A DNA stretch of 64,000 nucleotides from Candidatus Uhrbacteria bacterium (GTDB lineage: Bacteria; Patescibacteriota; Patescibacteriia; UBA9934; GWF2-40-263): positions 138 through 64,137 of the forward strand of contig JACPHT010000001.1 of NCBI GenBank assembly GCA_016188475.1, read 5' to 3'. Positions within the stretch are counted from its first letter, which is position 1, and every line of letters starts with the position of its first letter. This document shows, one piece after another, positions 40,829 to 53,202 of the stretch. Made by a program: the position numbers and the translations under genes. The notes beneath the pieces are model-generated. The model worked only from the letters and a program-made list of their open reading frames with translations. It was not told where the DNA came from and searched no databases.

Positions 40829-40844
40829 ATTTATTGCACTAGGC

Positions 40845-40935
40845 CGGAAATAAATTTCAGATAATGTATCGTGGAAGCCGAAGTTTGTCGTAGCGTAGCG
40901 TAGACAAATTTGCGTGAGCGAGCGTTAAAAATTAT
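40845..40935. other. attC-like imperfect palindrome (outermost recognisable cassette junction)
   Basis: AGCGTAG-rich dyad ending in a GTTAAAA-type box between two minus-strand genes. Confidence 0.35.
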
Positions 40936-40939
40936 TTTC

Positions 40940-41170
40940 TTATACCAAAAAACCATATTCTATTATTAACCCTATGACAAGAAGACTGAGTCCTACAAAG
41001 AATGAGGCCCACCATGGGTGATTTTTTATCTCTTGGCTAAAATGTTTGAGTCGAATGAGTTTGGTATTTTTTCCTGAAGTCTTAACGGTGGGCCGATTAC
41101 CAATAAAGTCACAGTCTTCGACTGTACAGTTATCTCCAGTAATATCTATAAATGGTTTTTTGTCTTCCAT
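40940..41170 (-). CDS. cassette-encoded small membrane protein
   Basis: 76 aa; C-terminal TM helix. Confidence 0.4.
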   Translation of the reverse strand: MEDKKPFIDITGDNCTVEDCDFIGNRPTVKTSGKNTKLIRLKHFSQEIKNHPWWASFFVGLSLLVIGLIIEYGFLV

Positions 41171-41209
41171 AAGAAAATAATTTTTAGCGAGCTAGCCGGC
41201 TAGCCAGTG

Positions 41210-41663
41210 TTAAGTGATGTTGCACACTATTTTCTCGGATTCTTTTAGGATTGTTTTGGCCAATGATCGTTCTTTGCTTGTTGTGGGATGAAAATGTATT
41301 TCTGTTTGATATTTTGGCCACTGATCATGCTGAACACGGAAAAAATGGACGATCTCTGCCTCAATAGCTTCAACATGAACACTATCCTCGAAAATCCATA
41401 CAATCAATGAGTGATCGCCATCTTCTTTTAGCCATTTATAACCATGATAGCCTGTTTTGTGATTTGGCTTTACGCCATACCGAATACGAGAACTCATTGA
41501 TTGTTTTGTGATGCCTACATAGTTAATGAGTCCATTTTTTCCGACCAAATATATCTTTTTTCCCTTTTTCGTGACCGGAGCTACAAAATGTCTGATTCCG
41601 TCATTGGCCAAAACAGAAACAATCTCATTATCCTTTACTTTGATTTTGTAAACAAAGTTCATA
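41210..41663 (-). CDS. cassette-encoded GIY-YIG nuclease-like protein
   Basis: KIYLVGKNGLINYVGITKQSMSSRIRYG fits the GIY-x10-YVG-T...R pattern; start at ATG 41663, with GTG alternative at 41680. Confidence 0.5.
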
Positions 41664-41680
41664 ATAGTGCGCAATTTCAC

Positions 41681-41819
41681 TTAACGGCCGGCGGCTGATC
41701 CGAAGTAAAAAGACACCTGACGTTTTTATGTTACAGGTGTCTTTTTATTTTGGATAGCCGCCTGTTGTGCGACGTCGCTTTGCGACGGAGCGCAACAGAG
41801 GCGAAGCCGCCGGCATAAC
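41681..41819. repeat. cassette-junction element, copy 1 (short variant)
   Basis: TTAACGGCCGGCGGC...AAAAAGACACCTG-acgtttttatgtta-CAGGTGTCTTTTT...GCCGCCGGCATAAC. Confidence 0.85.
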
Positions 41820-41882
41820 GTTTGCGTGTATGCGGTGTGGCGTCAGCCATATCGTATACACGCTGTTGTACGGAGTTTGGGC

Positions 41883-42065
41883 TTATCCTTCTCTTGCTTC
41901 TCTTTCTGCTTCGATTTTTTCCAATATCTCTCGTACTTTTTCAGGAGACGCACCAAGCTCTTCGAAGAATCTTACTTGGTCCGATGGAGGAATGGCCATT
42001 AATTTATCCAGGGCATCTTTGGCCTCAGACTCTTGAACTTCATGCTCTCGTGGTTGTTCTCTCAT
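41883..42065 (-). CDS. cassette-encoded small acidic protein
   Basis: 60-aa ORF flanked by attC-like palindromes. Confidence 0.3.
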   Translation of the reverse strand: MREQPREHEVQESEAKDALDKLMAIPPSDQVRFFEELGASPEKVREILEKIEAEREAREG

Positions 42066-42211
42066 ATGTTTAACTTGTTACTGATAAATAGCTAATGTTT
42101 AAATAATAGGATAAGACCAAATTTCGTGCAACGTTCGCGTATGATCCGACGTGATCGACCAGAGGGAGATCATGTTGGATATACGCTGTTAAGCGCCGTA
42201 CTCATTAACAA

Positions 42212-42448
42212 TTACATCGAAGAAAACGGGTCTCCGCATTGAGGACACCTGTCTGAGTTAACTAATCCGTAACTGGTTTTGCAATTTGCGCAATATACAT
42301 TTGCTGCACTTGTACGTCCGTTGGGATCTGGAACCATGGGCACTTTGCATTGAGAGCAAAGCAACTCATTACTGCCAGCGACGGCGGCAATATCAACTGT
42401 ACTATTGCATTGTGGACATTTGTACCCAAAAAATGAACCTGTTTGCAT
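42212..42448 (-). CDS. cassette-encoded zinc-ribbon protein (four CxxC pairs)
   Basis: CPQCN...CSQCK...CANCK...CPQCG. Confidence 0.5.
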   Translation of the reverse strand: MQTGSFFGYKCPQCNSTVDIAAVAGSNELLCSQCKVPMVPDPNGRTSAANVYCANCKTSYGLVNSDRCPQCGDPFSSM

Positions 42449-42466
42449 ATTTTTTCTTATTAAGAA

Positions 42467-42982
42467 TTAGGAACCTATATAAGTTGCAGTGATGTTTCCT
42501 TCTCCCTCGGCTGTGGATTTTGTGCCAGGTTTGAAAAATGTAGGCTTGGTTGTTTTGATGCCAGTTACATTACCTTTGCCTCTAGCAGTGTGTTCGCCGT
42601 CGATGGTAGTAATGAGAGAATTTAAACTTTTGTTCAAATTCTGGGTGGCCCACTCTTCATGCTCTTTTTTCCATTGTTTTAGTTGATCTACAGAGAAATC
42701 AATGCCATTATTTTTGTCGATCATATCAGCACAATTTGAACAAAGAAAAATACCATTATTTGTAGATTTTCTCTGTTCTGATGTTAAGTTTGAGTCATAT
42801 CTTGGGCCACCCTCTGCCGCAGCGGTTATATGGGCTGCTTTGCCTATGTATATAAATTTGTCCTCATTTTCTGCTGATGGGCAAAGTGTCAAATTTTTGC
42901 AATCAGGATTTGAGCAGATATAGGAGGCCCGTTTTCCTATTGCTTCAACTGTATTTTTATCAAATTCGTCTCGAGTTGACAT
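42467..42982 (-). CDS. cassette-encoded HNH endonuclease-like protein
   Basis: CSNPDCKN...AAHI...NGIFLCSNCADMID resembles the HNH beta-beta-alpha-metal motif. Confidence 0.45.
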   Translation of the reverse strand: MSTRDEFDKNTVEAIGKRASYICSNPDCKNLTLCPSAENEDKFIYIGKAAHITAAAEGGPRYDSNLTSEQRKSTNNGIFLCSNCADMIDKNNGIDFSVDQLKQWKKEHEEWATQNLNKSLNSLITTIDGEHTARGKGNVTGIKTTKPTFFKPGTKSTAEGEGNITATYIGS

Positions 42983-43007
42983 AATTTTGTATGTTAATGG
43001 GTATGGC

Positions 43008-43179
43008 GCTTAACGGCCGGCGGCTGATCCGAAGTAAAAAGACACCTGACGTTTTTATGTTACAGGTGTCTTTTTATTTTGGATAGCCGTCTGTTGTGCG
43101 ACGTCGCTTTGCGACGGAGCGCAACAGAGGCGAAGCCGCCGGCCGTTATGCCGATAGAGCAAAGCGATGTCGGCATAAC
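43008..43179. repeat. cassette-junction element, copy 2
   Basis: Near-identical to the other six copies. Confidence 0.85.
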
Positions 43180-43307
43180 GTCCCGCACTTTGCGATGTTT
43201 TGGCCTGTTATAATTTAGCACGAAGTGCTTGAACAGGCCAAAATATGGGCGTAGCGACTGAAAGGAGCGGAGCCGCAAAGTGCGTGTTAAGTGATGTTTT
43301 TATTTTT

Positions 43308-43931
43308 TCAAAGTATGCCAATTGGGCCGATTATTCTAAAGCCCTTCCGAATTGTTTCTTCGGTGTTGATTTCCCAGCACAGTGTCCCATTATAATCCAA
43401 GAATGAAACACCTAAAATTGCGTTATTTCGGGAGGGCGTTTTACTTGCTTTTTCTTGTATAGAATCAAAAATCTTCTTGGTCTTTCCCTTCATATTTTGA
43501 GGAAATTGTACCGGTTTTCTTTGTAGTTCATATGTGACTAAAAATTGCACAAATTTTTTCCAATTTGCTCGTTCACTTAGGAGTGCTCTACTAATGTTTA
43601 GTTCATCGCAGAGATTTTCAATGTTCGTTTTGAGCAAATGAAGGGAAAGACCTTCAATTACGGCGTCATTAATCCAAGTTCCTTCATTTGGATTTTTGTT
43701 ATGAGCGATCACCGCATCTGTTAAAAGTTCCAAAATTCTGAAAGCCGTAATTGAACCGGAGATTTTTGTGTGCAAGGCCCAATTGGCATACAAATTTAAG
43801 TATGGATATTTAGACTGGAAGCCTTTCTCTTCAATGATGTGCCGAAAGGCTGTCATTATTCGGAGGATATCATTTTTACTCCAATTACTATGCGAGAGTA
43901 ATTCTGTGATGTTTTTGATGTGATCTTCCAT
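43308..43931 (-). CDS. cassette-encoded hypothetical protein
   Basis: 207-aa ORF flanked by 27-bp inverted repeats that begin with GTTAAGTGA. Confidence 0.5.
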   Translation of the reverse strand: MEDHIKNITELLSHSNWSKNDILRIMTAFRHIIEEKGFQSKYPYLNLYANWALHTKISGSITAFRILELLTDAVIAHNKNPNEGTWINDAVIEGLSLHLLKTNIENLCDELNISRALLSERANWKKFVQFLVTYELQRKPVQFPQNMKGKTKKIFDSIQEKASKTPSRNNAILGVSFLDYNGTLCWEINTEETIRKGFRIIGPIGIL

Positions 43932-43949
43932 ACTTAAATTTGAAAAATA

Positions 43950-44035
43950 AAAATTTCACTTAACGTTTCGCGATATCCGACGTTTCGTAGAAATGTGGCT
44001 TTAGCCTTTACGGATATCGCGTGTTAGGCGAGGCT
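43950..44035. other. canonical attC-like site
   Basis: ACTTAAC-GTTTCGCGATATCCG...CGGATATCGCG-T-GTTAGGC: RYYYAAC and GTTRRRY boxes with complementary inner arms. Confidence 0.6.
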
Positions 44036-44064
44036 TCAGCTCTTGAGTTTGAATTTAAACTTTT

Positions 44065-44460
44065 TTAATATTTATCCTTAATGTATTTAAGAACTTCTAT
44101 ATCGTGGTCAATAATCTTTAGCTTGTTTATCTCGGAAAGATGAAACCAACCAAAATTTTGTCCTTCGCCTAAAGTAATTATTTTACTCGGATCAAATTCT
44201 TCCACAAAAACATGTTTTTCATTGGTTTCATCTTTCGACAAAAAATCTTGCTTCATTATCATCTTAGGGTTTTTGAGTGTGTAATTCAGCTCTTCAAGTG
44301 TTTCTCGCTTCACAGCCTGTTCTGGAGTTTCACCAGCTTCAATACCGCCACCGAAAAAAGCCCAATATCCAGGCAACCTTTCAGCATCTTCAGCACGATG
44401 TTGAAGTAAGATTTTTTTGTCTTGGTCGTATAAAATTATAATAGCTACGTTTCTCGCCAT
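44065..44460 (-). CDS. cassette-encoded NUDIX hydrolase
   Basis: Nudix box GGGIEAGETPEQAVKRETLEELNY; ORF flanked by 26-bp perfect inverted repeats TTTGAATTTAAACTTTTTTAATATTT. Confidence 0.8.
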   Translation of the reverse strand: MARNVAIIILYDQDKKILLQHRAEDAERLPGYWAFFGGGIEAGETPEQAVKRETLEELNYTLKNPKMIMKQDFLSKDETNEKHVFVEEFDPSKIITLGEGQNFGWFHLSEINKLKIIDHDIEVLKYIKDKY

Positions 44461-44518
44461 ATAGAAGTTCTTAAATGTTAAAATAAAGAAATATTAAAAA
44501 AGTTTAAATTCAAATTTC

Positions 44519-44690
44519 GCCTAACGGCCGGCGGCTGATCCGAAGTAAAAAGACACCTGACGTTTTTATGTTACAGGTGTCTTTTTATTTTGGATAGCCG
44601 CCTGTTGTGCGACGTCGCTTTGCAACGGAGCACAACAGAGGCGAAGCCGCCGGCCGTTATGCCGACAGAGCAAAGCGATGTCGGCATAAC
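44519..44690. repeat. cassette-junction element, copy 3
   Basis: Near-identical copy. Confidence 0.85.
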
Positions 44691-44921
44691 GTTCGTGTGT
44701 ATCTGAAGTTTTCATTCCGCTTCAATGGAATAAACTTTGATTATTAGATACACGCTTTTTAATAGAACCCCACCCAAATCCTCATCAAAACTAAGGGATG
44801 AAAATTTGGGCGGAGGAAAATTGGCACTCCTTAAGGATTTAATTAACGCCAATTTTCCATAGCCAGATACACGCTGTTATACGCTGTAATAAAAAGCCGA
44901 TTCGTTATTGATTTTGGCAAT

Positions 44922-45164
44922 TTATTTTTCTGTTTTGGAACCAAGAAATTTTCCCTCCACTACAACATCTTGTAATGCATTGAATAATTGAAGAACGCCG
45001 TTGCGGTGTTCCTCATTAACTTGAGGAAGTATTTCTTGAGTTAAACGAGCAAGACCTTCTGTAACTTTCCCTTTTGCATATTCTGGTAATGCTTTCATAT
45101 TGGGAGTCAATTCTACTGATAGCGAGGCTTTTGCGCCAACCTCTGGCCTGAATGTTTCTGTCAT
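44922..45164 (-). CDS. cassette-encoded hypothetical protein
   Basis: 80-aa ORF. Confidence 0.35.
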   Translation of the reverse strand: MTETFRPEVGAKASLSVELTPNMKALPEYAKGKVTEGLARLTQEILPQVNEEHRNGVLQLFNALQDVVVEGKFLGSKTEK

Positions 45165-45274
45165 ATTTTTTTAAGTTAATTATTACTTTGATTATACTAT
45201 GAGTTATACTCGACCGCTTCAAATAAATTGCCAAAATCAATATTCAAATTTCACAATCGGCTTTTTATTATGGC

Positions 45275-45446
45275 GTATAACGGCCGGCGGCTGATCCGAA
45301 GTAAAAAGACACCTGACGTTTTTATGTTACAGGTGTCTTTTTATTTTGGATAGCCGCCGGTTGTGCGACGTCGCTTTGCGACGGAGCGCAACAGAGGCGA
45401 AGCCGCCGGCCGTTATGCCGACAGAGCAAAGCGATGTCGGCATAAC
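45275..45446. repeat. cassette-junction element, copy 4
   Basis: Near-identical copy; terminator hairpin at 45303-45347. Confidence 0.85.
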
Positions 45447-45689
45447 GTTCCTGCGTATGCGATGTTTGCCAGTGGTATAATTGCACGAAGTGCTTACCAC
45501 TGGCAAATATGGGTGGAGGCTTGCGGAGGTACGAAGCAAGCCGTAACCGCATACGCAGTGTTATATGATGTACATGTTTTCCTTTAATTTCTGAAAGAAA
45601 TTGCTCTTATAAAAGAATCCGGTTTTGTTTTTCCGTTTGGGGCGAAGGGCAGAGGGGATTAAGGGGTGAATGCCCGAGCCCCAAACACT

Positions 45690-46298
45690 TTAATCTTCTT
45701 CACCCTCAATTCTTTTTCTGCGCTCATCTAGCGTTTCGCCTTCATACATCCAATAAGCTGTTCCTTGAATTCCGTAATCATAACCGAGAATTTTTTGTGC
45801 AGAAGAAGAAAGACTTGTAACTTTGCCATTAAAATTGATGGATTTATTATCAACCACATTTGCCTTAATGTTTTCATCGCGACTAAAAATTAATTCTGCA
45901 CCAACCGGAATGTTGACCATCTTAAAATTAAACTTAGCTCGCATTTCTGCACGTGCTTGATTTAGGGCATGCTGATCTTCTTTTGATTCCACGAAGTCTT
46001 TTTTAGGCGTAATATCTTCAATCTCTGCCAATTTAAGTGCAGAAACTACACGTTCTGGAGAGATTTGAAAAAATTCTCGTCTTGGATTTGTTCGGTTATT
46101 GTCAAATGCATCATGTAGCTGATGTTCAACAAAGGCTGCGTCTTTTACGGTACATGCGTAGAAACAAGTAAAAGGAAGTGGAACGCTCGTGGAAGCGCTA
46201 AGCTCTCTAATCCTTTGCTCAAGGCTTGTTGAAGTTTTGCCAATTTTTACATATCCAGGCATGGCTTCATTGATGAGAATGTAGATGATTTCAATCAT
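45690..46298 (-). CDS. T5orf172 (GIY-YIG-like) domain protein, second gene of the candidate defense pair
   Basis: IYILINEAMPGYVKIGKT...RIREL...PLPF...RREFF matches the T5orf172 pattern; start ATG overlaps the upstream stop (ATGA). Confidence 0.6.
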   Translation of the reverse strand: MIEIIYILINEAMPGYVKIGKTSTSLEQRIRELSASTSVPLPFTCFYACTVKDAAFVEHQLHDAFDNNRTNPRREFFQISPERVVSALKLAEIEDITPKKDFVESKEDQHALNQARAEMRAKFNFKMVNIPVGAELIFSRDENIKANVVDNKSINFNGKVTSLSSSAQKILGYDYGIQGTAYWMYEGETLDERRKRIEGEED

Positions 46299-48013
46299 AA
46301 TTTTATAGATTTATTTGGTGCTAAAAGTTCCTTAATTTTTGAAATTAAAGGTTTGAAATTCCCAAAAGTATCCGAGCTGGTTTCAGCTTGAACTTTATTT
46401 AAAAATTTGCCTTTATCGAAAGTGGTGATTGACGTAGTTGCACTATATGAGCCAGGTCTTACTTCCGTAGAGTAAACGTCATCTGTGAATAAGGTATCGG
46501 GGTATAGATTTTCAATGCCAACAGCTTTTCCATCTTTATCTTTAGCCTTTGTATTTGCAGAATTTTCCGCAAAGCAAAACTTTTTAAAGCTTTCTGTTTC
46601 TGTAATGCTGTTTATCATGGAGGCGCAGTCACAATCCCAAACAAAAAGGAACTTTCCGCTAAAATCACCGGACGACATTACGTCAAAAGCGTTTTTCAAC
46701 TGTTGCCCGCGCTTATCTGGCGAACCTTCTATAATTTTAATTTGACTAAGTAAAGTGTTGTCGAGGATTTCAAAAGCTTTTTTAATATGCTCTGTATTAT
46801 TTCCCTCCGTAACAATTTGTAAACTTTTCGTGCCATCAATCTCTTTTTGTATTTTTAAACCCTTTTCAAAGGTTATGATCCCCTCGCTTAAAAGGTTAAT
46901 AGCGTCTCCCTGTGATATTTTTCTGATTTTTTCATTTTTTTTGCCCTTCTGTATCTCAAATAGTGATTCTTCATATGCTAATGCGACCGTGGTCGGAGAA
47001 TGGGTAGCAAGAATAACCTTACAGCCGTTTTTTATGAACACATTTTGAATCACATCCAATAAATCTTGAATCATGGATGGATGAAGTGATGCATCTACTT
47101 CATCAAGAAGTAACAATGCAGGAAATTCTGATTTGTTATCTTGATAAACTGTAATAGCCAGTGCGCACAATATCTTTTCACCCGATGACAAGTCTTCAAA
47201 ATCAATTTCTTCATCATCTATGGAGAGTTTTACTTGAAATGATACAGCTTGACTATTTATCAGATCTCCAGCTGTAAATTCTGGATGTGAAATAGTATGA
47301 AGTAGCCCAAACTCTTTAAACATGCTGTTTACAAAATTCCATGGAGATTGTTCTTCTATTTTTTTGATTTGGCTATCGTTTAATCCTTCTCCGCCGTCGC
47401 TTTCTCTTAATTTTGCCACGGTTAGTTTTTTTTGATAATCAAGAAAAACTTCGCTTAAACTTTCTAGAAGCTCGTACTCATCTGGGCTGTAGTTTGAAAA
47501 TTTAAAAAATTCTGCCTGTGTGATTTCCGAAGCGTATTTAACAGACTCGAATACGCCCGTTTTTAAAAGCTTCTTAATTTTGGGATTATCTTTTGTATGC
47601 TTATTTATAAAGGTTAGAATATCCTTTTTTTGTTCAGCGTATTTTTGTTTTTGTGCTTTTGGCACTTCAAAATCATAGGGGTACTCCTTTTCGCCCACGA
47701 ATGTTTTAATTTGATTGTCGTAATTTTGGAATTGTTGCCTTTGAGAATTTAAGATATTCCACGCTTGCATTTTTTCATCATCAAGATTCCGTGGGGCAAT
47801 TTTAGCCTGGTTCTTTATGAGAAATGTTTGTAGGTTAAAGTACGAAATCCTTTCTTTTTGTATGTTGTCAGCTGAAACAAAGCCCTCTTGCATCGCCTTG
47901 AGCAAGTGAGTTTTTCCAGCGCCGTTTACACCTAGAAATATCGAAAAGTCCTTAATATCAATTTCACTAAAGTTGGCGATTGATTTATGTTTTTGATTGA
48001 ATTTAATATTCAT
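46295..48013 (-). CDS. OLD-like ABC-type ATPase fused to a C-terminal TOPRIM-like nuclease domain
   Basis: Walker A GVNGAGKTHLLKA, ABC signature LSSGEKI, Walker B LLLLDEVDASLHP, H-loop ATHSP; C-terminal IVTEGNNTE ... FVWDCDC resembles TOPRIM Glu and DxD. Confidence 0.6.
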   Translation of the reverse strand: MNIKFNQKHKSIANFSEIDIKDFSIFLGVNGAGKTHLLKAMQEGFVSADNIQKERISYFNLQTFLIKNQAKIAPRNLDDEKMQAWNILNSQRQQFQNYDNQIKTFVGEKEYPYDFEVPKAQKQKYAEQKKDILTFINKHTKDNPKIKKLLKTGVFESVKYASEITQAEFFKFSNYSPDEYELLESLSEVFLDYQKKLTVAKLRESDGGEGLNDSQIKKIEEQSPWNFVNSMFKEFGLLHTISHPEFTAGDLINSQAVSFQVKLSIDDEEIDFEDLSSGEKILCALAITVYQDNKSEFPALLLLDEVDASLHPSMIQDLLDVIQNVFIKNGCKVILATHSPTTVALAYEESLFEIQKGKKNEKIRKISQGDAINLLSEGIITFEKGLKIQKEIDGTKSLQIVTEGNNTEHIKKAFEILDNTLLSQIKIIEGSPDKRGQQLKNAFDVMSSGDFSGKFLFVWDCDCASMINSITETESFKKFCFAENSANTKAKDKDGKAVGIENLYPDTLFTDDVYSTEVRPGSYSATTSITTFDKGKFLNKVQAETSSDTFGNFKPLISKIKELLAPNKSIKL

Positions 48014-48192
48014 AGTTTACTTCAAGTGTGGAAATCACAAATTGGCGTTATTTTACTCCGTTTCCTCCTATAAATAAATCGTTTTCGGAGCGGAGCGTAG
48101 AAAACTCCTTATTTCCCCTCTATAAAAAAAGAAAAACAAAACCGGATTCTTTTTAAGAGCTTGGCGAAGCCAAAAAGGAAAACATGTATTTC

Positions 48193-48340
48193 ATATAACG
48201 GCTGGCGGCTGATCCGAAGTAAAAAGACACCTGACGTTTTTATGTTACAGGTGTCTTTTTATTTTGGATAGCCGCCTGTTGTGCGACGTCGCTTTGCGAC
48301 GGAGCGCAACAGAGGCGAAGCCGCCGGCCGTTATGCCGAC
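48193..48340. repeat. cassette-junction element, copy 5
   Basis: Near-identical copy (CGGCTGG variant at the left arm). Confidence 0.85.
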
Positions 48341-48481
48341 AGAGGCGGAACAAAAATTTGGGAGAAGGAATTTTTCTTACCTTGAATTATAAATGTGAAA
48401 AATTCCTGAACCGGATATGCCGTGTTGTGCGATGTCCGCATTTGCCCGCCCTTGTTAGTTGGAAATGGATGCCCCGAAATC

Positions 48482-49060
48482 TTATTGCAAAATCTTTTCC
48501 AATAGTTCAGGAAACTCCTCGGTTTTCATATCGCCCAAGCAGTAATGACCTCGCCCTTTTAGCTCGACAATCTCGCCACCAAGCACCTCATGAAAAATTT
48601 TTAAACTTTTTTTACCGTCTTCCTCCTCGTCGTCCGCAGTGAACATAACTATTTGATTTATCCTATCCTTGATAGACGAGTCAATCTGATATGTATAGAA
48701 ATTTACATCGGTACCACTTCTTTTTTCTTGCGGAATTTTCCAAGGCGCGACTAAAAAAAGTTTAAAAATTTTGGTCTTAGTCTCACTAAGCCAGCGAACC
48801 AAGAAGGCGCAACCGCAACTATGTCCAACTAAAATTGTGTTTTCATCAACAGTATATTTTTCAAATTCAGCCTTAAATTTTTCATAATCAGGTTGCCAAG
48901 GCGAGGGCATGAGAGGAGTTTCCGTTTCAATATTTTTTGCAATAAGATTTCTTTTTAACCACGGAATCCAGTGCTTGTCATAAGTCCTTGTTTCAGGATT
49001 CATCGCTTTTTCAGCATCAGAGGGGCATCCATGGATTATGATACATCTATTCTTTGTCAT
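48482..49060 (-). CDS. cassette-encoded alpha/beta hydrolase (RBBP9/YdeN-like serine hydrolase)
   Basis: IIIHGCPS ... LVGHSCG nucleophile elbow. Confidence 0.55.
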   Translation of the reverse strand: MTKNRCIIIHGCPSDAEKAMNPETRTYDKHWIPWLKRNLIAKNIETETPLMPSPWQPDYEKFKAEFEKYTVDENTILVGHSCGCAFLVRWLSETKTKIFKLFLVAPWKIPQEKRSGTDVNFYTYQIDSSIKDRINQIVMFTADDEEEDGKKSLKIFHEVLGGEIVELKGRGHYCLGDMKTEEFPELLEKILQ

Positions 49061-49325
49061 ATGGTTGAATGTTATTTTTAGCACTAGGGCAAATGCGGAT
49101 TTCGCACAACGTATCCAAATATCTGAAGTTTCGCACTTTGGTTTTAAGGCTAAAATCTTTGATATCCAGACTATTTTGTTAGTTTAATTATACTATACAT
49201 TATCACAAAACGGAAAAGTGCGAAATTTGGGTCGAGAAAATTTTTCACTCTTTATTATTTCTAATAAATGAAAAATTTTGGAGCCAGATATTTGGTGTTC
49301 AACGATGTTGCGAGGATTTTCGTTT

Positions 49326-49547
49326 TTATTTCTCAGAATGTTTTAATTTAATCAAATCATATATTGCAGAAACGGTAAAAATAATTTGCAAAATAATAAA
49401 TATTAAATCGCTTAGGTAAATACTGTATATTTCCAGGCATACTCCGCCAACAATATACATCAAGTCCTGCGTACGACGATTTTTATTTATAATGCCAGCG
49501 GATATTAATAATAATCCGACCGCGCCTATCATCTTAAAAATTGACAT
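49326..49547 (-). CDS. cassette-encoded small membrane protein
   Basis: About 73 aa; three hydrophobic helices. Confidence 0.4.
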   Translation of the reverse strand: MSIFKMIGAVGLLLISAGIINKNRRTQDLMYIVGGVCLEIYSIYLSDLIFIILQIIFTVSAIYDLIKLKHSEK

Positions 49548-49594
49548 ATTATTTTGCAAATTATTTTGTTTTCAGGAAAAAATCCTCGCAATTT

Positions 49595-49700
49595 CGTTGA
49601 ACGTTCACCGATAAGCGAAGTTTTATTGAGCAAAGCGAAATAAAATTTGCGAAAAACTCGGGCTGAGAGTTTTTCCGCTTATCGCGTTGTTATACGCCCC
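49595..49700. other. attC-like site
   Basis: TTGAAC-GTTCACCGATAAGCG...CGCTTATCGCG-T-GTTATAC. Confidence 0.55.
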
Positions 49701-49758
49701 GAGCGAAACGAAGTGTAGCGAGAGCGCAGCGTGGTGCGGAGCGTAGCGGAGCAAGTTG

Positions 49759-50262
49759 CTAATTTGCCCGTTTCATCTGCTGGACTTTTTTTAAAAACAC
49801 AATATCTCTTTGCTGAATAAAAGAACCCTCATAATTTGTTGGTTTATCGTTTTCAACTTTGGAAATTGCTTCATCTAATGGCAACCAAACGAGTTTAAAG
49901 TTTTGGCTTAATTCCTCTTCCGTGAAAGCAGGCGACCCTTTTGATGTTATTTTGCCTATATAACAATAGGATATTTGTTTCAAATTGAAATTTGAACGAT
50001 ATTCAATAATTTCCCCAACTTCACCAGTGACTTTAATTTCACTCCCGACTTCTTCCATAACTTCGCGGACCAGAGCTGCGGCCTTATTTTCGCCATCGTC
50101 GATTCCGCCGCCAGGTAATTTGTGATAGTTATAATTTGAAACAAATAGAAGAGGAATTAAGCCATTCTCGTCAAAAAGCACAGCTCTTGATGCTTCTCTA
50201 ATTTCCAAAGTTGATTCATCTTTAGGCCACTCTTTGTCTTTTATCTCGTGTAATAGTTCCAT
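49759..50262 (-). CDS. cassette-encoded NUDIX hydrolase
   Basis: Nudix box GGGIDDGENKAAALVREVMEEVGSE. Confidence 0.8.
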   Translation of the reverse strand: MELLHEIKDKEWPKDESTLEIREASRAVLFDENGLIPLLFVSNYNYHKLPGGGIDDGENKAAALVREVMEEVGSEIKVTGEVGEIIEYRSNFNLKQISYCYIGKITSKGSPAFTEEELSQNFKLVWLPLDEAISKVENDKPTNYEGSFIQQRDIVFLKKVQQMKRAN

Positions 50263-50323
50263 AGTAAATTATGAGGGTTCTTTATTTTTATAAATGTATC
50301 GGCAAGGGCAAATTAGCAATTGC

Positions 50324-50468
50324 GTATAACGGCCGGCGGCTGATCCGAAGTAAAAAGACACCTGACGTTTTTATGTTACAGGTGTCTTTTTATTTTGGAT
50401 AGCCGCCTGTTGTGCGACGTCGCTTTGCGACGGAGCGCAACAGAGGCGAAGCCGCCGGCCGTTATGCC
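50324..50468. repeat. cassette-junction element, copy 6
   Basis: Near-identical copy. Confidence 0.85.
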
Positions 50469-50549
50469 ATTACCGCCTAAGCGAGAGAAGGATGGCGTAT
50501 ACGCGCTGTTGTACGATTGCAGAACACCAACTTGAATTATGTAATCTTG

Positions 50550-51158
50550 CTAAATAGTAGTATGGACAAAGTCGTAAAATTGAGAAAAGTCTTTGACGAC
50601 AATAGACGGATTGCCGTTAATTAAATTTTGTTCATTTTGGTAACCACCAAGAATTCCAACAATTATTTTCACACCAACCTTCTTAGCTTCAGCAATATCT
50701 CCGGCTGTGTCGGTAATAAAAGTAACATTATTGGGTTCCAGAGCATATTTTTCAAATAGCATCTTAAATTTTTCTACCTTGCTTGTATGAACCTCATTGC
50801 CAAGAATCTTTTGAAAACAGGATAGTATGCCATGGCTCTGAAGATAGTCTTGAATGATATCACTTCGAGTACTTGAAATAATAAATAGTTGGAACTCTTG
50901 TGATAATTTTTGAATAAAGTCTTTCTTTTTTGAATCAATACCTAAATGTTTGAAACGGTCCCCGTACTCTCTAAAAAAGTCTATTTTTTTTACGACTTTG
51001 TCCTCGTATTTTACTTCATTAATATTACCATTGAAGGCATTTTGATATCGCTCCAAAGTTAAAGTTGGCCTTGAGAGCTTATTCACTTCAAAAGCTATGT
51101 CAAAACTATCAGCGATTACTCCATCAAAGTCGAAGATAATAGTAGGCTTATGATCCAT
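50550..51158 (-). CDS. cassette-encoded HAD-family hydrolase
   Basis: IIFDFDGVIADS motif I (DxDG). Confidence 0.7.
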   Translation of the reverse strand: MDHKPTIIFDFDGVIADSFDIAFEVNKLSRPTLTLERYQNAFNGNINEVKYEDKVVKKIDFFREYGDRFKHLGIDSKKKDFIQKLSQEFQLFIISSTRSDIIQDYLQSHGILSCFQKILGNEVHTSKVEKFKMLFEKYALEPNNVTFITDTAGDIAEAKKVGVKIIVGILGGYQNEQNLINGNPSIVVKDFSQFYDFVHTTI

Positions 51159-51189
51159 AGATCTTAAATAAAAGGGTGTTCTGCTTTTC

Positions 51190-51305
51190 GTACAACGTTC
51201 GCGCATAAGCGATGTTTGCCAGTTGTATAATATGCCGTTAGGCTTACAACTGGCAAATATGGGTGGAGCGACGAGGTACGAGGAGCGGAACCGTTTATGC
51301 GCTGT
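51190..51305. other. attC-like site
   Basis: GTACAAC-GTTCGCGCATAAGCG...CGTTTATGCGC-T-GTTAAGT with internal TTTGCCAGTTGTA/TACAACTGGCAAA dyad. Confidence 0.55.
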
Positions 51306-51326
51306 TAAGTGATGTGTTTGAGAATT

Positions 51327-52034
51327 CTACTTCAAATAGGTTTCCAGATTTTTGACCATTCGCCCCACATAAAGGTTTAGGCTTTTTTGGCCAATTTCCT
51401 TATTAACAATCCAATCGGGATGATTATCTGCAATTCCATTCGGACTTTTTTCAGCTATATTATCAGTTTCAAAGGCATCTTCGATGAAGGTCTTTTTTTC
51501 GTCTTTGCTTGGCGGAATGACAGTCGCTTCATCTATTACCATCATGTTTGAAATTTCGGTATTGCCTGCATGTCCATCTGATGGACCGCCAAGCATTTCA
51601 ACAAGCTTTTGTTCATCCTCATCGTTGCACATCTCAAGATGAACTATTTTAGCGGGCTGAAAAAAGTCCGATTTTTCTCGGATAAACTTTTGAATATATG
51701 GGTCATTATGATGAAACGATGTAATGAAAATATAATCTGCTTTTTGAAAAATAGAATTGCAGATATCAAACATTACTTGAGCAAGTGTTTCTTCGGTAAG
51801 ATAGACTGTGCCAAAAAAGCCACGGTGCTCTTGTGCACGAGAGAACTCTAACGTTGGAAGAATTACCAGCTCAGGAAACTGTTTCTCAACTTGATCAACA
51901 AGATAGTCAGTAATATACGTGTCAGTACCGAAGGGGGCGAATGGTCCATGTTGCTCAAGCGAACCTATTGGAACGACGAAATTGTATTTTGTATCACCAG
52001 ATAAATCTGGAAACCTCATTCTTTTTAATCTCAT
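51327..52034 (-). CDS. cassette-encoded creatininase-family amidohydrolase
   Basis: VVPIGSLEQHGP ... GTD ... GHAGNTE motifs. Confidence 0.65.
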   Translation of the reverse strand: MRLKRMRFPDLSGDTKYNFVVPIGSLEQHGPFAPFGTDTYITDYLVDQVEKQFPELVILPTLEFSRAQEHRGFFGTVYLTEETLAQVMFDICNSIFQKADYIFITSFHHNDPYIQKFIREKSDFFQPAKIVHLEMCNDEDEQKLVEMLGGPSDGHAGNTEISNMMVIDEATVIPPSKDEKKTFIEDAFETDNIAEKSPNGIADNHPDWIVNKEIGQKSLNLYVGRMVKNLETYLK

Positions 52035-52065
52035 ATTTTTAGTATAGATGAATTCTCAAACATTT

Positions 52066-52214
52066 CACTTAACGGCCGGCGGCTGATCCGAAGTAAAAAG
52101 ACACCTGACGTTTTTATGTTACAGGTGTCTTTTTATTTTGGATAGCCGCCTGTTGTGCGACGTCGCTTTGCGACGGAGCGCAACAGAGGCGAAGCCGCCG
52201 GCATGTCGGCATAA
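52066..52214. repeat. cassette-junction element, copy 7 (short variant), proximal to the recombinase
   Basis: Near-identical copy about 155 bp from the recombinase start. Confidence 0.85.
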
Positions 52215-52371
52215 CTAGTAAATATACGAACTTGTGTCGGATAAAATACTTTGAAAATGAATTATATGATGTGAGTAACCTGCGTTGACAAGTACATGAA
52301 ATCATGTAACAATAAGATTGTAAATAACCTCCTATTCTAATCTTGATGGGCGGTTTTTTTATATCTTCAAT

Positions 52372-53202
52372 ATGTTTTTAATTTCTAATACCGAACAAGC
52401 GTTGTTGTCTATTGACCAACTTCTACGCATAAAAAATTACAGTCCAAAAACAATAAAAAGTTACAAGGGCTGTTTGGCTAGATTCTTAAAACAGTTTCCT
52501 GATTGTTTGAACTATTCAAACATCGAGTGTATCAAAACATTCCTTTTATCCATGCGCGAATCTGGATTATCTCCTCAAACTATCAATGTACATCTTCAGG
52601 CAATACAATTTTATTTTCGTGAAATCTTACATCAACCATTCCGTTTCACTCTACCATACGCAAAACGACCGAAACGGTTGCCTGTCATACTTTCTAGATC
52701 AGAAATTGAACAAATTCTAAACCATATATCAAACACAAAACATAAAACCATGATCGCTCTGGCTTATGGGGCGGGACTCCGTGTCTCTGAAGTGGTTGAG
52801 TTGCGCTCTGGAAACGTAGATTTTCCTTCCGGAGTTTTATATATTTATCAAAGTAAAGGCAAAAAAGATCGTATAACAATTCTTCCAGAAATATTGCGCG
52901 ATGAATTACAAAAAGCGGTTTGTGGAAAATCACCGAACGATTATCTTTTTGCCAGCGAACGAGGCGGACGTTTGTCTGAACGTTCAATTCAAAAAGTATT
53001 TTCTCGTGCGCTTCATTCAACACAGATAAACAAACAAGCAACATTTCATTCACTGCGTCATAGCTTCGCAACACACGTTTTGGAACAAGGAACTGACATC
53101 AGATTCATTCAAAAACTTCTTGGCCATGCAAATATTAGAACAACACAAATTTACACTCACGTTTCAACAGCTTCTATCAGTGCAATCAAAAGCCCGCTAT
53201 AG
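52372..53202 (+). CDS. tyrosine site-specific recombinase, integron-integrase-like (XerC/D superfamily)
   Basis: R...HSLRHSFATHVLEQGTDIRFIQKLLGH...TTQIYTHV catalytic core; LPVILSRSEIEQIL and GAGLRVSEVVELRSGNVDF...YQSKGKKDRIT segments resemble IntI as recalled; transcribed divergently from the cassette array; appears to lack the long IntI-specific insertion. Confidence 0.7.
   Translation: MFLISNTEQALLSIDQLLRIKNYSPKTIKSYKGCLARFLKQFPDCLNYSNIECIKTFLLSMRESGLSPQTINVHLQAIQFYFREILHQPFRFTLPYAKRPKRLPVILSRSEIEQILNHISNTKHKTMIALAYGAGLRVSEVVELRSGNVDFPSGVLYIYQSKGKKDRITILPEILRDELQKAVCGKSPNDYLFASERGGRLSERSIQKVFSRALHSTQINKQATFHSLRHSFATHVLEQGTDIRFIQKLLGHANIRTTQIYTHVSTASISAIKSPL

Follow-up and report, generated by a model that had tools for sequence, protein, structure and literature searches.

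In classical integrons, an array of gene cassettes adjoins a divergent tyrosine recombinase gene, the cassettes are bounded at G|TT, and the same cassette can be found behind different neighbors. Their attC sites, in the class 1 and Vibrio-type arrays, are imperfect palindromes of the form R''-L''...L'-R' with RYYYAAC/GTTRRRY boxes and a variable loop, and the first six bases of a cassette complement its own R''. The same organization is present in an integron-type array at 41.2-52.2 kb of a 64,000-nucleotide (nt) stretch of DNA from a groundwater bacterium of Candidatus Uhrbacteria (contig JACPHT010000001.1, positions 138 to 64,137; this whole stretch is called the window below), in which the gene cassettes are enclosed by long inverted repeats. 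Compared with classical attC sites, the array has an own-end stem of 22-27 base pairs (bp) or more, where class 1 controls have 8-12 bp, an invariant G·T pair at position 11 of that stem (the G of GTT being position 1), perfect 11-bp L stems with a one-sided bulge and no extrahelical bases, and a recombinase without the additional domain of IntI. On balance, the evidence leans towards these repeats being the outer part of each cassette's own attC recombination hairpin.

The papers we searched take the additional domain and a 7-bp R box as standard; they describe neither cassette-end pairing beyond the R box nor attC arrays beside integrases that lack the additional domain, though absence from that literature is not proof of novelty. 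A second point of comparison is provided by the integration of CTX phage at dif, where XerC and XerD act on folded single-stranded DNA and a recombinase of Xer length, without the I2 helix, uses a hairpin that mimics the duplex core site with arms of ~11 bp. The stem described here resembles that hairpin in comprising an arm of ~11 bp, a bulged center and an 11-bp arm. Unlike the Xer/CTX case, the array holds many different cassettes with a cassette-specific outer helix, no dif-like sequence was identified, and activity on single-stranded DNA is presumed.

Complementary ends of the gene cassettes

The array consists of short minus-strand genes spaced by imperfect palindromes that, on the plus strand, start with xxxxAAC and end with GTTxxxx. 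We read this layout as that of an integron because palindrome-spaced short genes adjoin a divergent tyrosine recombinase gene, and by analogy with integrons the cassette top strand is taken to be the minus strand of the window and the attC bottom strand its plus strand, on which arms and sites are given below. Twelve gene cassettes have ends that can be placed, from a GTT start to an AAC end, and their own ends are complementary in 12/12. The left end reads GTTxxxx-GA-TG-X and the right end X'-TT-TC-xxxxAAC, where X and X' are 12-16 nt of sequence private to each cassette that pair within it. In 10 cassettes the stem, including the R box, is ~21-27 bp long and contiguous with that box, while in the two NUDIX cassettes an insertion in the left arm (16 nt and ~57 nt) parts the R box from X, yet pairing of X with X' persists. 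The repeats of several cassettes extend to ~50-60 bp in two or three segments (44023-44105/44461-44525, 45560-45638/48126-48199 and 44876-44927/45221-45281).

The design is seen in the cassette of a 207-amino-acid (aa) protein, whose open reading frame (ORF) lies at 43308..43931 on the minus strand; the protein has 9 homologs at 52-88% identity, mostly metagenomic, and no match in Pfam, NCBIfam or PADLOC. Its left arm, 43286..43312 (GTTAAGTGATGTTTTTATTTTTTCAAA), is composed of GTTAAGT, GA, TG (positions 10-11) and X, which is TTTTTATTTTTTCAAA; GTTAAGT represents here, in bottom-strand reading, the R'' box of the attC that belongs to this cassette, and the arm overlaps the TGA stop of the ORF. 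The right arm, 43939..43964 (TTTGAAAAATAAAAATTTCACTTAAC), is composed of X', which is TTTGAAAAATAAAAA, followed by TT, TC and ACTTAAC, the last being the first 6 nt of the cassette plus a C from the upstream attC, and on the sense strand 7 nt separate it from the ATG downstream. An earlier note, made from the sequence alone, had reported repeats of this kind around four cassettes, and all four are present: those of the 207-aa cassette are as quoted, complementary save for positions 10-11 and one T in a T-run; 41209-41231 and 41663-41685 pair with three mismatches; 44048-44073 and 44489-44514, in the first NUDIX cassette, pair over 26 nt at 100%; and 45560-45585 and 48174-48199, around a defense gene pair, over 26 nt at 92%. 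Its wider observation, that the complementarity runs far into cassette-specific sequence, thus holds for the array in general, and several cassettes carry it farther than that note had recorded.

Starting from the end next to the recombinase gene, the arms are arranged as follows. The creatininase cassette (51304-52073) is bounded by arms at 51304..51327 and 52050..52073, and the HAD cassette (50508-51196) by arms at 50508..50528 and 51175-51196, which differ in length by one base at positions 10-12. The second NUDIX cassette (49689-50330) has a left arm at 49689..49769, made up of GTTATACGC, a ~57-nt module at 49698-49755 and X at 49756-49769, with its partner at 50306-50330. The arms of a 306-nt cassette (49297-49602) lie at 49297..49320 and 49579-49602, and those of a serine-hydrolase cassette (48424-49110) at 48424..48447 and 49087-49110. 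In the two-gene defense cassette (45560-48199), the left arm, 45560..45638, holds 26 nt contiguous with the R box and a second segment of 28 nt (45611-45638), and the right arm is at 48126..48199. The cassette of an 80-aa protein (44876-45281) has a left arm in two segments (44876..44927, partner 45221-45281), and its positions 10-11 are both of the G·T type on the plus strand. The first NUDIX cassette (44023-44525) carries, in its left arm at 44023..44105, GTTAGGCGA, the 16-nt insertion, X at 44048-44073 and a second segment at ~44086-44103 that falls within the last ~13 codons; its right arm, 44461..44525, holds 18 nt abutting the ATG, X' at 44489-44514, and TTTC GCCTAAC. In this cassette, the stretch of 18 nt that abuts the ATG is complementary to a run of codons close to the ORF's 3' end. 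The 207-aa cassette (43286-43964) is followed by the cassette of a zinc-ribbon and an HNH protein (42188-43014; arms 42188..42210 and 42992-43014), that of a 60-aa protein (41865-42132; arms 41865..41889 and 42108-42132) and that of a 156-aa protein (41209-41685; arms 41209..41231 and 41663-41685).

Chance similarity between A/T-rich flanks is the simplest explanation of such repeats, and the 207-aa cassette illustrates its appeal, since its arms are A/T-rich and of low complexity and its unanchored flank score of just 12.0 lies inside the non-cognate range. The arms of this cassette are nevertheless significant because the match begins at an identical offset from the R box on both sides. Across the window, an anchored, ungapped scan gave 8 pairs against 0.0 in shuffles, and in a gapped alignment of the flanks beyond position 11 the 12 cognate pairs scored 11-38.5, compared with a mean of 7.5 (sd 1.4, maximum 12.5) for the 132 non-cognate pairs. 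Arms that contain G and C (e.g., TCCGCATTTGCCC and TTGCGAGGATTTT) behave alike. Stem statistics were derived without a covariance model, given loops of anything from 30 to 150 nt; at positions 13-19, Watson-Crick pairs occur in 19 to 22 of 22 cassettes from this and other loci, each position showing all four pair types, while non-cognate combinations of ends are paired at 23-30%. Shuffles and non-cognate controls thus rule out chance and low complexity. Terminal inverted repeats of a transposon or miniature inverted-repeat transposable element are ruled out as well, since the arm sequence differs in each cassette, there are no target-site or end direct duplications, and the array holds no transposase. 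Together we consider these explanations vanishingly improbable.

Orthologous cassettes lead to the same conclusion. The earlier note had raised the alternative of A/T-rich similarity that is not conserved in orthologs; instead, orthologs keep the repeats, one of them with compensatory changes. The comparison covers two cassettes (207-aa and NUDIX), and its compensatory evidence comes from one ortholog pair in the case of X and from a second in that of the R box. At locus L149, a protein 88% identical to the 207-aa protein lies in a complete cassette behind a different upstream attC. The R box is changed there on both sides (GTTAGAT/ATCTAAC vs GTTAAGT/ACTTAAC), and outside it X, X' and the spacer to the ATG are identical at 31/31 positions, compared with 71% identity at third codon positions. 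Homologs of the 207-aa protein at L152/153, L155 and L157 are outside cassettes. The NUDIX cassette, which has ~200 homologs, provides the covariation in X: at L168, with ORF DNA at 88% identity, both arms differ from the window at four X positions (a G>A and the block AAC>GGA), and one further position, changed on a single arm, produces a bottom-strand G·T. Upstream of the NUDIX cassette, five different sequences are found (window, L168 and the nearly identical copies at L175, L176 and L177), and the similarity begins exactly at GTTAG, which shows mobility with the classical boundary. The cassettes accordingly behave as discrete mobile units bounded at G|TT, the same cassette being found behind differing upstream sequences.

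The position-11 wobble and its strand

In 22/22 cassettes, position 11 is a G in the left arm, and the reverse-complemented right arm has an A there; the cassettes are drawn from the window and ten other loci, namely Uhrbacteria L002, Turneriella L009, Psychroflexus L019/L034, Firmicutes-type metagenome-assembled genomes (MAGs) L005/L058, a Bacteroidetes MAG (L062) and three metagenome loci. The pair is therefore a G·T wobble on the plus strand, the bottom strand of attC, and a mismatched A·C in the sense orientation. Uhrbacteria cassettes have a further non-pairing site at position 10, which is T·T on the plus strand and A·A on the sense strand. The same asymmetry is found when cassette ends are set from attC hairpins alone. 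In 12 Bacteroidota cassettes defined in this way (L019, L024, L028, L061), of which two (L019, L061) had been examined already and 10 are new beyond the 22, all have G/A at position 11 followed by exactly three further pairs, so that these arrays display a shorter form of end pairing (14 bp). The relaxed hairpin finder used for this purpose returned numerous false sites, and the set was limited to pairs whose 7-bp R boxes are perfectly complementary.

In 19/23 cassettes with the position-11 wobble, the strand that bears it runs antisense to the longest ORF and is thus the classical bottom strand, and two further window cassettes without G/A at position 11 likewise have their ORFs on the minus strand. 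In the four exceptions (two at L009, one at L105 and one at L123) the ORF is reversed and the wobble remains on the strand of the array; L105 holds ORFs in both orientations. Because the polarity of the wobble tracks the array even where the ORF is reversed, the asymmetry belongs to the recombination site and not to the transcript.

These observations bear directly on a function in RNA. The earlier note had offered mRNA end pairing, with effects on stability or translation, as one consequence of the repeats, and a 5' untranslated region paired with its 3' counterpart could serve in end protection, in start masking, or as RNase III sites at which the array transcript is cut into single-cassette messages. 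In rRNA genes, processing stems that are RNase III substrates are formed by inverted repeats that enclose the whole gene and pair its ends. In line with such a role, the arms lie in untranslated flanks, some of them abutting or covering the start region and the stop codon, and the stems, otherwise of Watson-Crick pairs, would form in RNA too, as folds of the top strand indicate. However, position 11 carries a G·T wobble in the antisense strand and an A·C mismatch in the sense strand, and seven other mismatches include four antisense-strand wobbles and a single sense-strand wobble. Unlike rRNA processing stems, the asymmetry lies on the antisense strand and follows the recombination site, whichever way the ORF points. 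The arms are moreover contiguous and in register with a recombination box, and no Rfam family was matched: a scan of 39.0-53.3 kb at E up to 0.1 returned just spurious plant microRNA matches on a repeated hairpin element. Pairing in mRNA is thus disfavored, and we consider it highly unlikely to be what the repeats are for.

Neither the long stem nor the wobble is present in class 1 or planctomycete cassettes. Six plasmid-borne class 1 cassettes, read in the same orientation (aac(6')-29, blaVIM-2, aac(6')-Ib, aadA2, aadB and arr-3), have a circular-form stem of 8-12 bp, i.e., 1-5 bp beyond the 7-bp R box, and no G/A at position 11. The statement of the earlier note that canonical sites pair over about 7 bp therefore needs a small correction, and the contrast it drew stands. 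Planctomycete arrays beside relatives of the recombinase described below have pairing that stops at 11-13 bp, without the wobble. With class 1 as the integron control, the window stems are two to five times longer than these class 1 and planctomycete baselines.

The attC hairpin and the adjacent recombinase

Palindromes of the attC type, R''-L''-loop-L'-R' with RYYYAAC/GTTRRRY boxes, separate the cassette ORFs, among others at 43173-43292, 43958-44029, 44684-44882, 45440-45566, 49104-49303 and 49596-49695. The own attC of the 207-aa cassette, 43173..43292, reads GCATAAC - gtcc - CGCACTTTGCG - variable loop with inner hairpin - CGCAAAGTGCG - t - GTTAAGT on the plus strand, with an L stem of 11 perfectly paired bp and a one-sided bulge after AACG. 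The upstream attC, 43958..44029, is 72 nt long and belongs to the first NUDIX cassette, and its ACTTAAC box is the R' half for the 207-aa cassette. In most sites the L stems are contiguous perfect 11-mers, and the extrahelical L-box bases of classical attC are not present. Asymmetries are limited to a 3-nt bulge after AACG, in the 5' arm on the plus strand, and the wobble at position 11. A double-stranded core site at the junctions was considered and dropped, as dyad symmetry around the crossover is confined to the hexamer AACGTT.

With the 3' end of a cassette linked to its 5' end, folding under DNA parameters predicts a single rod for the bottom strand, X'-wobble-R-bulge-L-loop-L-R-X, and the plus strand is more stable than the minus strand in 6/7 cassettes (e.g., -43.3 vs -37.4 and -46.7 vs -39.2 kcal/mol). 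In folds of the same attC sites with their array flanks, the R stem is absent or sequestered. The other consequence suggested in the earlier note, much longer R stems in the excised circle, is thereby supported: the repeats are contiguous with the R box, the joined ends are predicted to fold as one rod, position 11 is asymmetric, and the polarity is linked to the array.

The recombinase gene (52372..53202, plus strand) diverges from the cassettes and encodes an IntI/XerA-like tyrosine recombinase of 276 aa, with a Pfam Phage_integrase match (1.6e-44) and a SAM-like N-terminal domain. Its best match in the PDB is the integron integrase VchIntIA (2a3v), in two blocks (residues 9-182 with 4-180 and 200-276 with 241-317), separated by 17 residues as against 60 in IntI; the ~43 residues that are missing belong to the IntI-specific region, which carries the I2 helix, around patch III. 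The protein falls below the NCBIfam cutoffs for both the integron integrase (TIGR02249, 205.7 bits, cutoff 265) and XerA (NF040815, 214.5 bits, cutoff 220). It aligns end to end with the archaeal and Patescibacterial XerA type (NF040815, PDB 4a8e; 18-270 to 20-270). Unlike that type, it has VchIntIA as its best PDB match, adjoins an attC array with an attI-like boundary, and has relatives in several phyla that likewise lie beside attC arrays. The recombinase and the 207-aa protein each have a 100% identical counterpart in a Candidatus Uhrbacteria record. The closest recombinase loci are likewise from Uhrbacteria (L001, 83%; L002, 63%), and at least 120 homologs measure 259-311 aa, nearly all 260-290. 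Homologs at 50-60% identity are very common in Patescibacteria, where they are annotated as XerD or 'tyrosine recombinase/integron integrase', and equally short relatives adjoin attC arrays in Bacteroidota, Planctomycetota, Leptospiraceae and other MAGs. Perfect 11-mer L stems without extrahelical bases are in keeping with the missing I2 region.

The polarity, specificity and conservation of the end pairing, together with its contiguity with the R box, lead us to read it as a DNA feature of attC, and a mechanism can be proposed. The crossover would fall at G|TT, inside the R box, so the bases 3' of R' and those 5' of R'' always travel together. When the cassette is circular, or its bottom strand single-stranded, its first bases and its last bases before attC would become neighbors. 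The resulting rod would consist, in order, of a clamp helix X'/X (12-16 bp or more), the position-11 G·T (with T·T at 10 in Uhrbacteria), GA/TC, the 7-bp R box, the one-sided 3-nt bulge, the perfectly paired 11-bp L stem and the variable loop. We suggest that, in vivo, a recombinase of Xer length without the I2 helix reads an 11-bp R arm that bears the wobble at its outer end, and that the clamp helix holds that outer end helical and may affect recombination rates. The wobble and the bulge, present in the bottom-strand fold alone, may replace the classical extrahelical bases as the signal for strand choice. As an attC in the array is flanked by the ends of two different cassettes, the full stem forms solely between a cassette's own ends, and the favored substrate would be the excised form or a looped-out single-stranded cassette.

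The arms might alternatively act within the array, where the ends of a cassette would zip together on the single-stranded bottom strand, the ORF would loop out, and the flanking attC hairpins would meet in a four-way junction that limits excision to exactly one cassette. When whole cassettes are folded together with the attC sites on either side, the minimum-free-energy structures keep the long-range end pairing in 6/6, with a predicted 21-23/26 arm pairs in five cassettes and 43/60 in the sixth, and the absence or sequestration of the local R stem in array context is also what such a zipper would lead one to expect. These folds are thermodynamic predictions, however, and loops of 300-2600 nt are kinetically unfavorable compared with local hairpins; folds of the top strand, in addition, give the same result. 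We regard this proposal as distinctly unlikely, though it is compatible with an outer attC stem and does not exclude it.

Several points weigh against the repeats being a working part of the attC hairpin. The multi-segment repeats of 50-60 bp, one of which reaches into coding sequence, exceed the needs of a clamp for an 11-bp arm. Among orthologs of the 207-aa cassette, L151 keeps the 3' arm with an unrelated 5' end and L156 keeps the 5' arm alone; among those of the NUDIX cassette, L176/L177 have an uncompensated T>A, and at L168 (1-600) the X arms pair at 25/26 despite R boxes (GTTAGGC/GTACAAC) that mismatch at 3/7. Equally short planctomycete recombinases go with stems of 11-13 bp and no wobble, which indicates that the missing I2 insertion alone does not require a long stem. 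Some of the Patescibacteria homologs may be housekeeping Xer proteins, so that the dedication of the recombinase to the array is argued from adjacency, orientation and the attI-like boundary. The loci outside the window in the position-11 set were found through the repeats themselves, an ascertainment bias from which the hairpin-defined sets are free. Lastly, we acknowledge that the circles, the folding in vivo and the activity of the recombinase are deduced from sequence and fold prediction.

Some of these points would be accounted for if the repeats were a functionless by-product of hairpin-templated synthesis or repair in the circular or single-stranded cassette, through quasi-palindrome 'correction' or arm-to-arm conversion, with the palindrome creeping outward. 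Quasi-palindrome templated mutation and conversion between palindrome arms would change both arms in blocks and make a hairpin grow outward. The segmented repeats beyond any plausible binding need resemble such an outcome, as does the NUDIX ortholog, where the 3-nt block AAC>GGA on both arms is easier to explain as one templated event than as six substitutions, and the orthologs that lost one arm and kept the gene are consistent with it as well. The invariant G·T at position 11 is left unexplained, however, since conversion should erase a wobble. Class 1 and planctomycete cassettes, which likewise pass through hairpin or circular forms, stop at 8-13 bp, and lineage-specific stem length is not something that conversion predicts. 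The stronger conservation of the 207-aa cassette's flanks relative to synonymous sites is likewise left unexplained. We think this origin unlikely; it would still need the ends to pair as DNA in vivo, and is thus a rival on function and not on structure.

With the repeats read as the outer attC stem, a broader and more tentative proposal is possible, namely that gene-capture systems of this kind in Patescibacteria, Bacteroidota, Leptospiraceae and some Firmicutes-type MAGs might constitute a separate branch of integron-like systems. Such a branch, which we regard as possible though less likely than not, would be defined by an I2-less recombinase of Xer length, attC hairpins without extrahelical bases, and strand choice guided by the one-sided bulge together with the invariant G·T, which lies four bases out from the R box. 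As this wobble is possible only if the cassette's own ends are paired beyond it, each cassette would have to carry a private 'zipper'. Were the proposal true, the I2 domain and the extrahelical bases would be one of at least two solutions for the recognition of single-stranded sites, and such systems could sit between Xer and classical IntI.

The array behaves as an integron in its discrete cassettes, its G|TT boundaries and the occurrence of the same cassette in different contexts, and it lacks both of two supposedly defining features of integrons, the additional domain of IntI and attC hairpins with extrahelical bases. In their place it has a conserved wobble held in a helix of the cassette's own ends. 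The origin of strand choice and of single-strand recombination from Xer-type enzymes thus becomes directly testable. Searches that require the additional domain would miss such arrays or call them integrase-less clusters; complementarity of own ends combined with G/A at position 11 offers a practical rule by which cassettes can be delimited and arrays oriented in candidate-phyla genomes. The long repeats, one of them extending into coding sequence, also bear on how attC sites become attached to genes.

Other elements of the array

Next to the boundary of the first cassette (GCATAA|C, 52209-52215) lie ~155 nt with conserved counterparts in L002 and L081 (TCGGATAA, TATATGATGTGA, TTGACA). This region (52215..52371, plus strand), between the boundary and the recombinase gene, is a putative attI and promoter region. 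At the distal end (40830-41215), just a short palindrome (GCTAGCCGGCTAGC), without an xxxxAAC box, lies to the left of 41209, and the ORFs between 39838 and 41170, one of which encodes a cupin, have no recognizable attC sites. A promoter and terminator scan of the region gave counts at the shuffle expectation (30 vs 28.9; 12 vs 10.4).

Some cassettes carry genes of defense type. In the two-gene cassette, 45690-48013 encodes an AriA/PtuA-like ATPase together with a T5orf172 protein that matches the PADLOC candidate PDC-S57 (6e-73). In another, 42467-42982 encodes an HNH protein matching PDC-M68A (1.7e-28), and an ORF for a double zinc-ribbon protein precedes the HNH ORF.

A long type of attC (43173-43292, 45440-45566 and 51190-51310) has a loop that is conserved among its copies and contains an inner hairpin. 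In two of these loops (45477-45506 and 51227-51256) the minus strand holds a promoter-like TTGCCA-18-TATTAT/AATTAT that faces the next cassette, promoter-like sites in the region being not above chance. The ~57-nt module of the second NUDIX cassette (CCCGAGCG.AACG.AGTG.AGCGAGAG..., between GTTATACGC and X) occurs in two unrelated cassettes (window 49698-49755; L081 414-470) and is predicted to give a large one-sided bulge in the outer stem.

A 130-nt element (GGCCGGCGGC...GCCGCCGGCC) is present in seven near-identical copies, each directly after an xxxxAAC box (41686-41815, 43015-43144, 44526-44655, 45282-45411, 48200-48329, 50331-50460 and 52074-52203), and no copy was found in 148 other loci examined. 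Together with an adjoining mini-hairpin, GTTATGC-CGACA-loop-TGTCG-GCATAAC, it reads as an ORF-less cassette of ~165 nt, whose circle is predicted to be a closed dumbbell. It has no spacer between its R and L stems, and a 13-bp hairpin between A and T runs resembles a two-way terminator. One copy is the first cassette beside the recombinase gene. Where the ORF-less cassette is the downstream one, the xxxxAAC box of the adjoining attC is predicted to pair with the GTTATGC of the mini-hairpin and not with its own partner (43145-43181, 44656-44692 and 45412-45448), which would leave the R box sequestered in the array state.

At L152/L153, a 71%-identical homolog of the 207-aa protein lies in an ordinary neighborhood without attC, and its 3' flank (TGTGAAAAATAAAAGTCACAAAAC) resembles X'-CATC-ACTTAAC; this may be either a decayed cassette or a hint of the gene before capture. 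The attC at L168 is apparently truncated at the array end, beside gyrA. Downstream of the NUDIX gene in L175-L182, the R''-L'' half of attC is deleted between two GCT.AAGCC repeats, so that the NUDIX cassette is fused to the next one with both arms retained.

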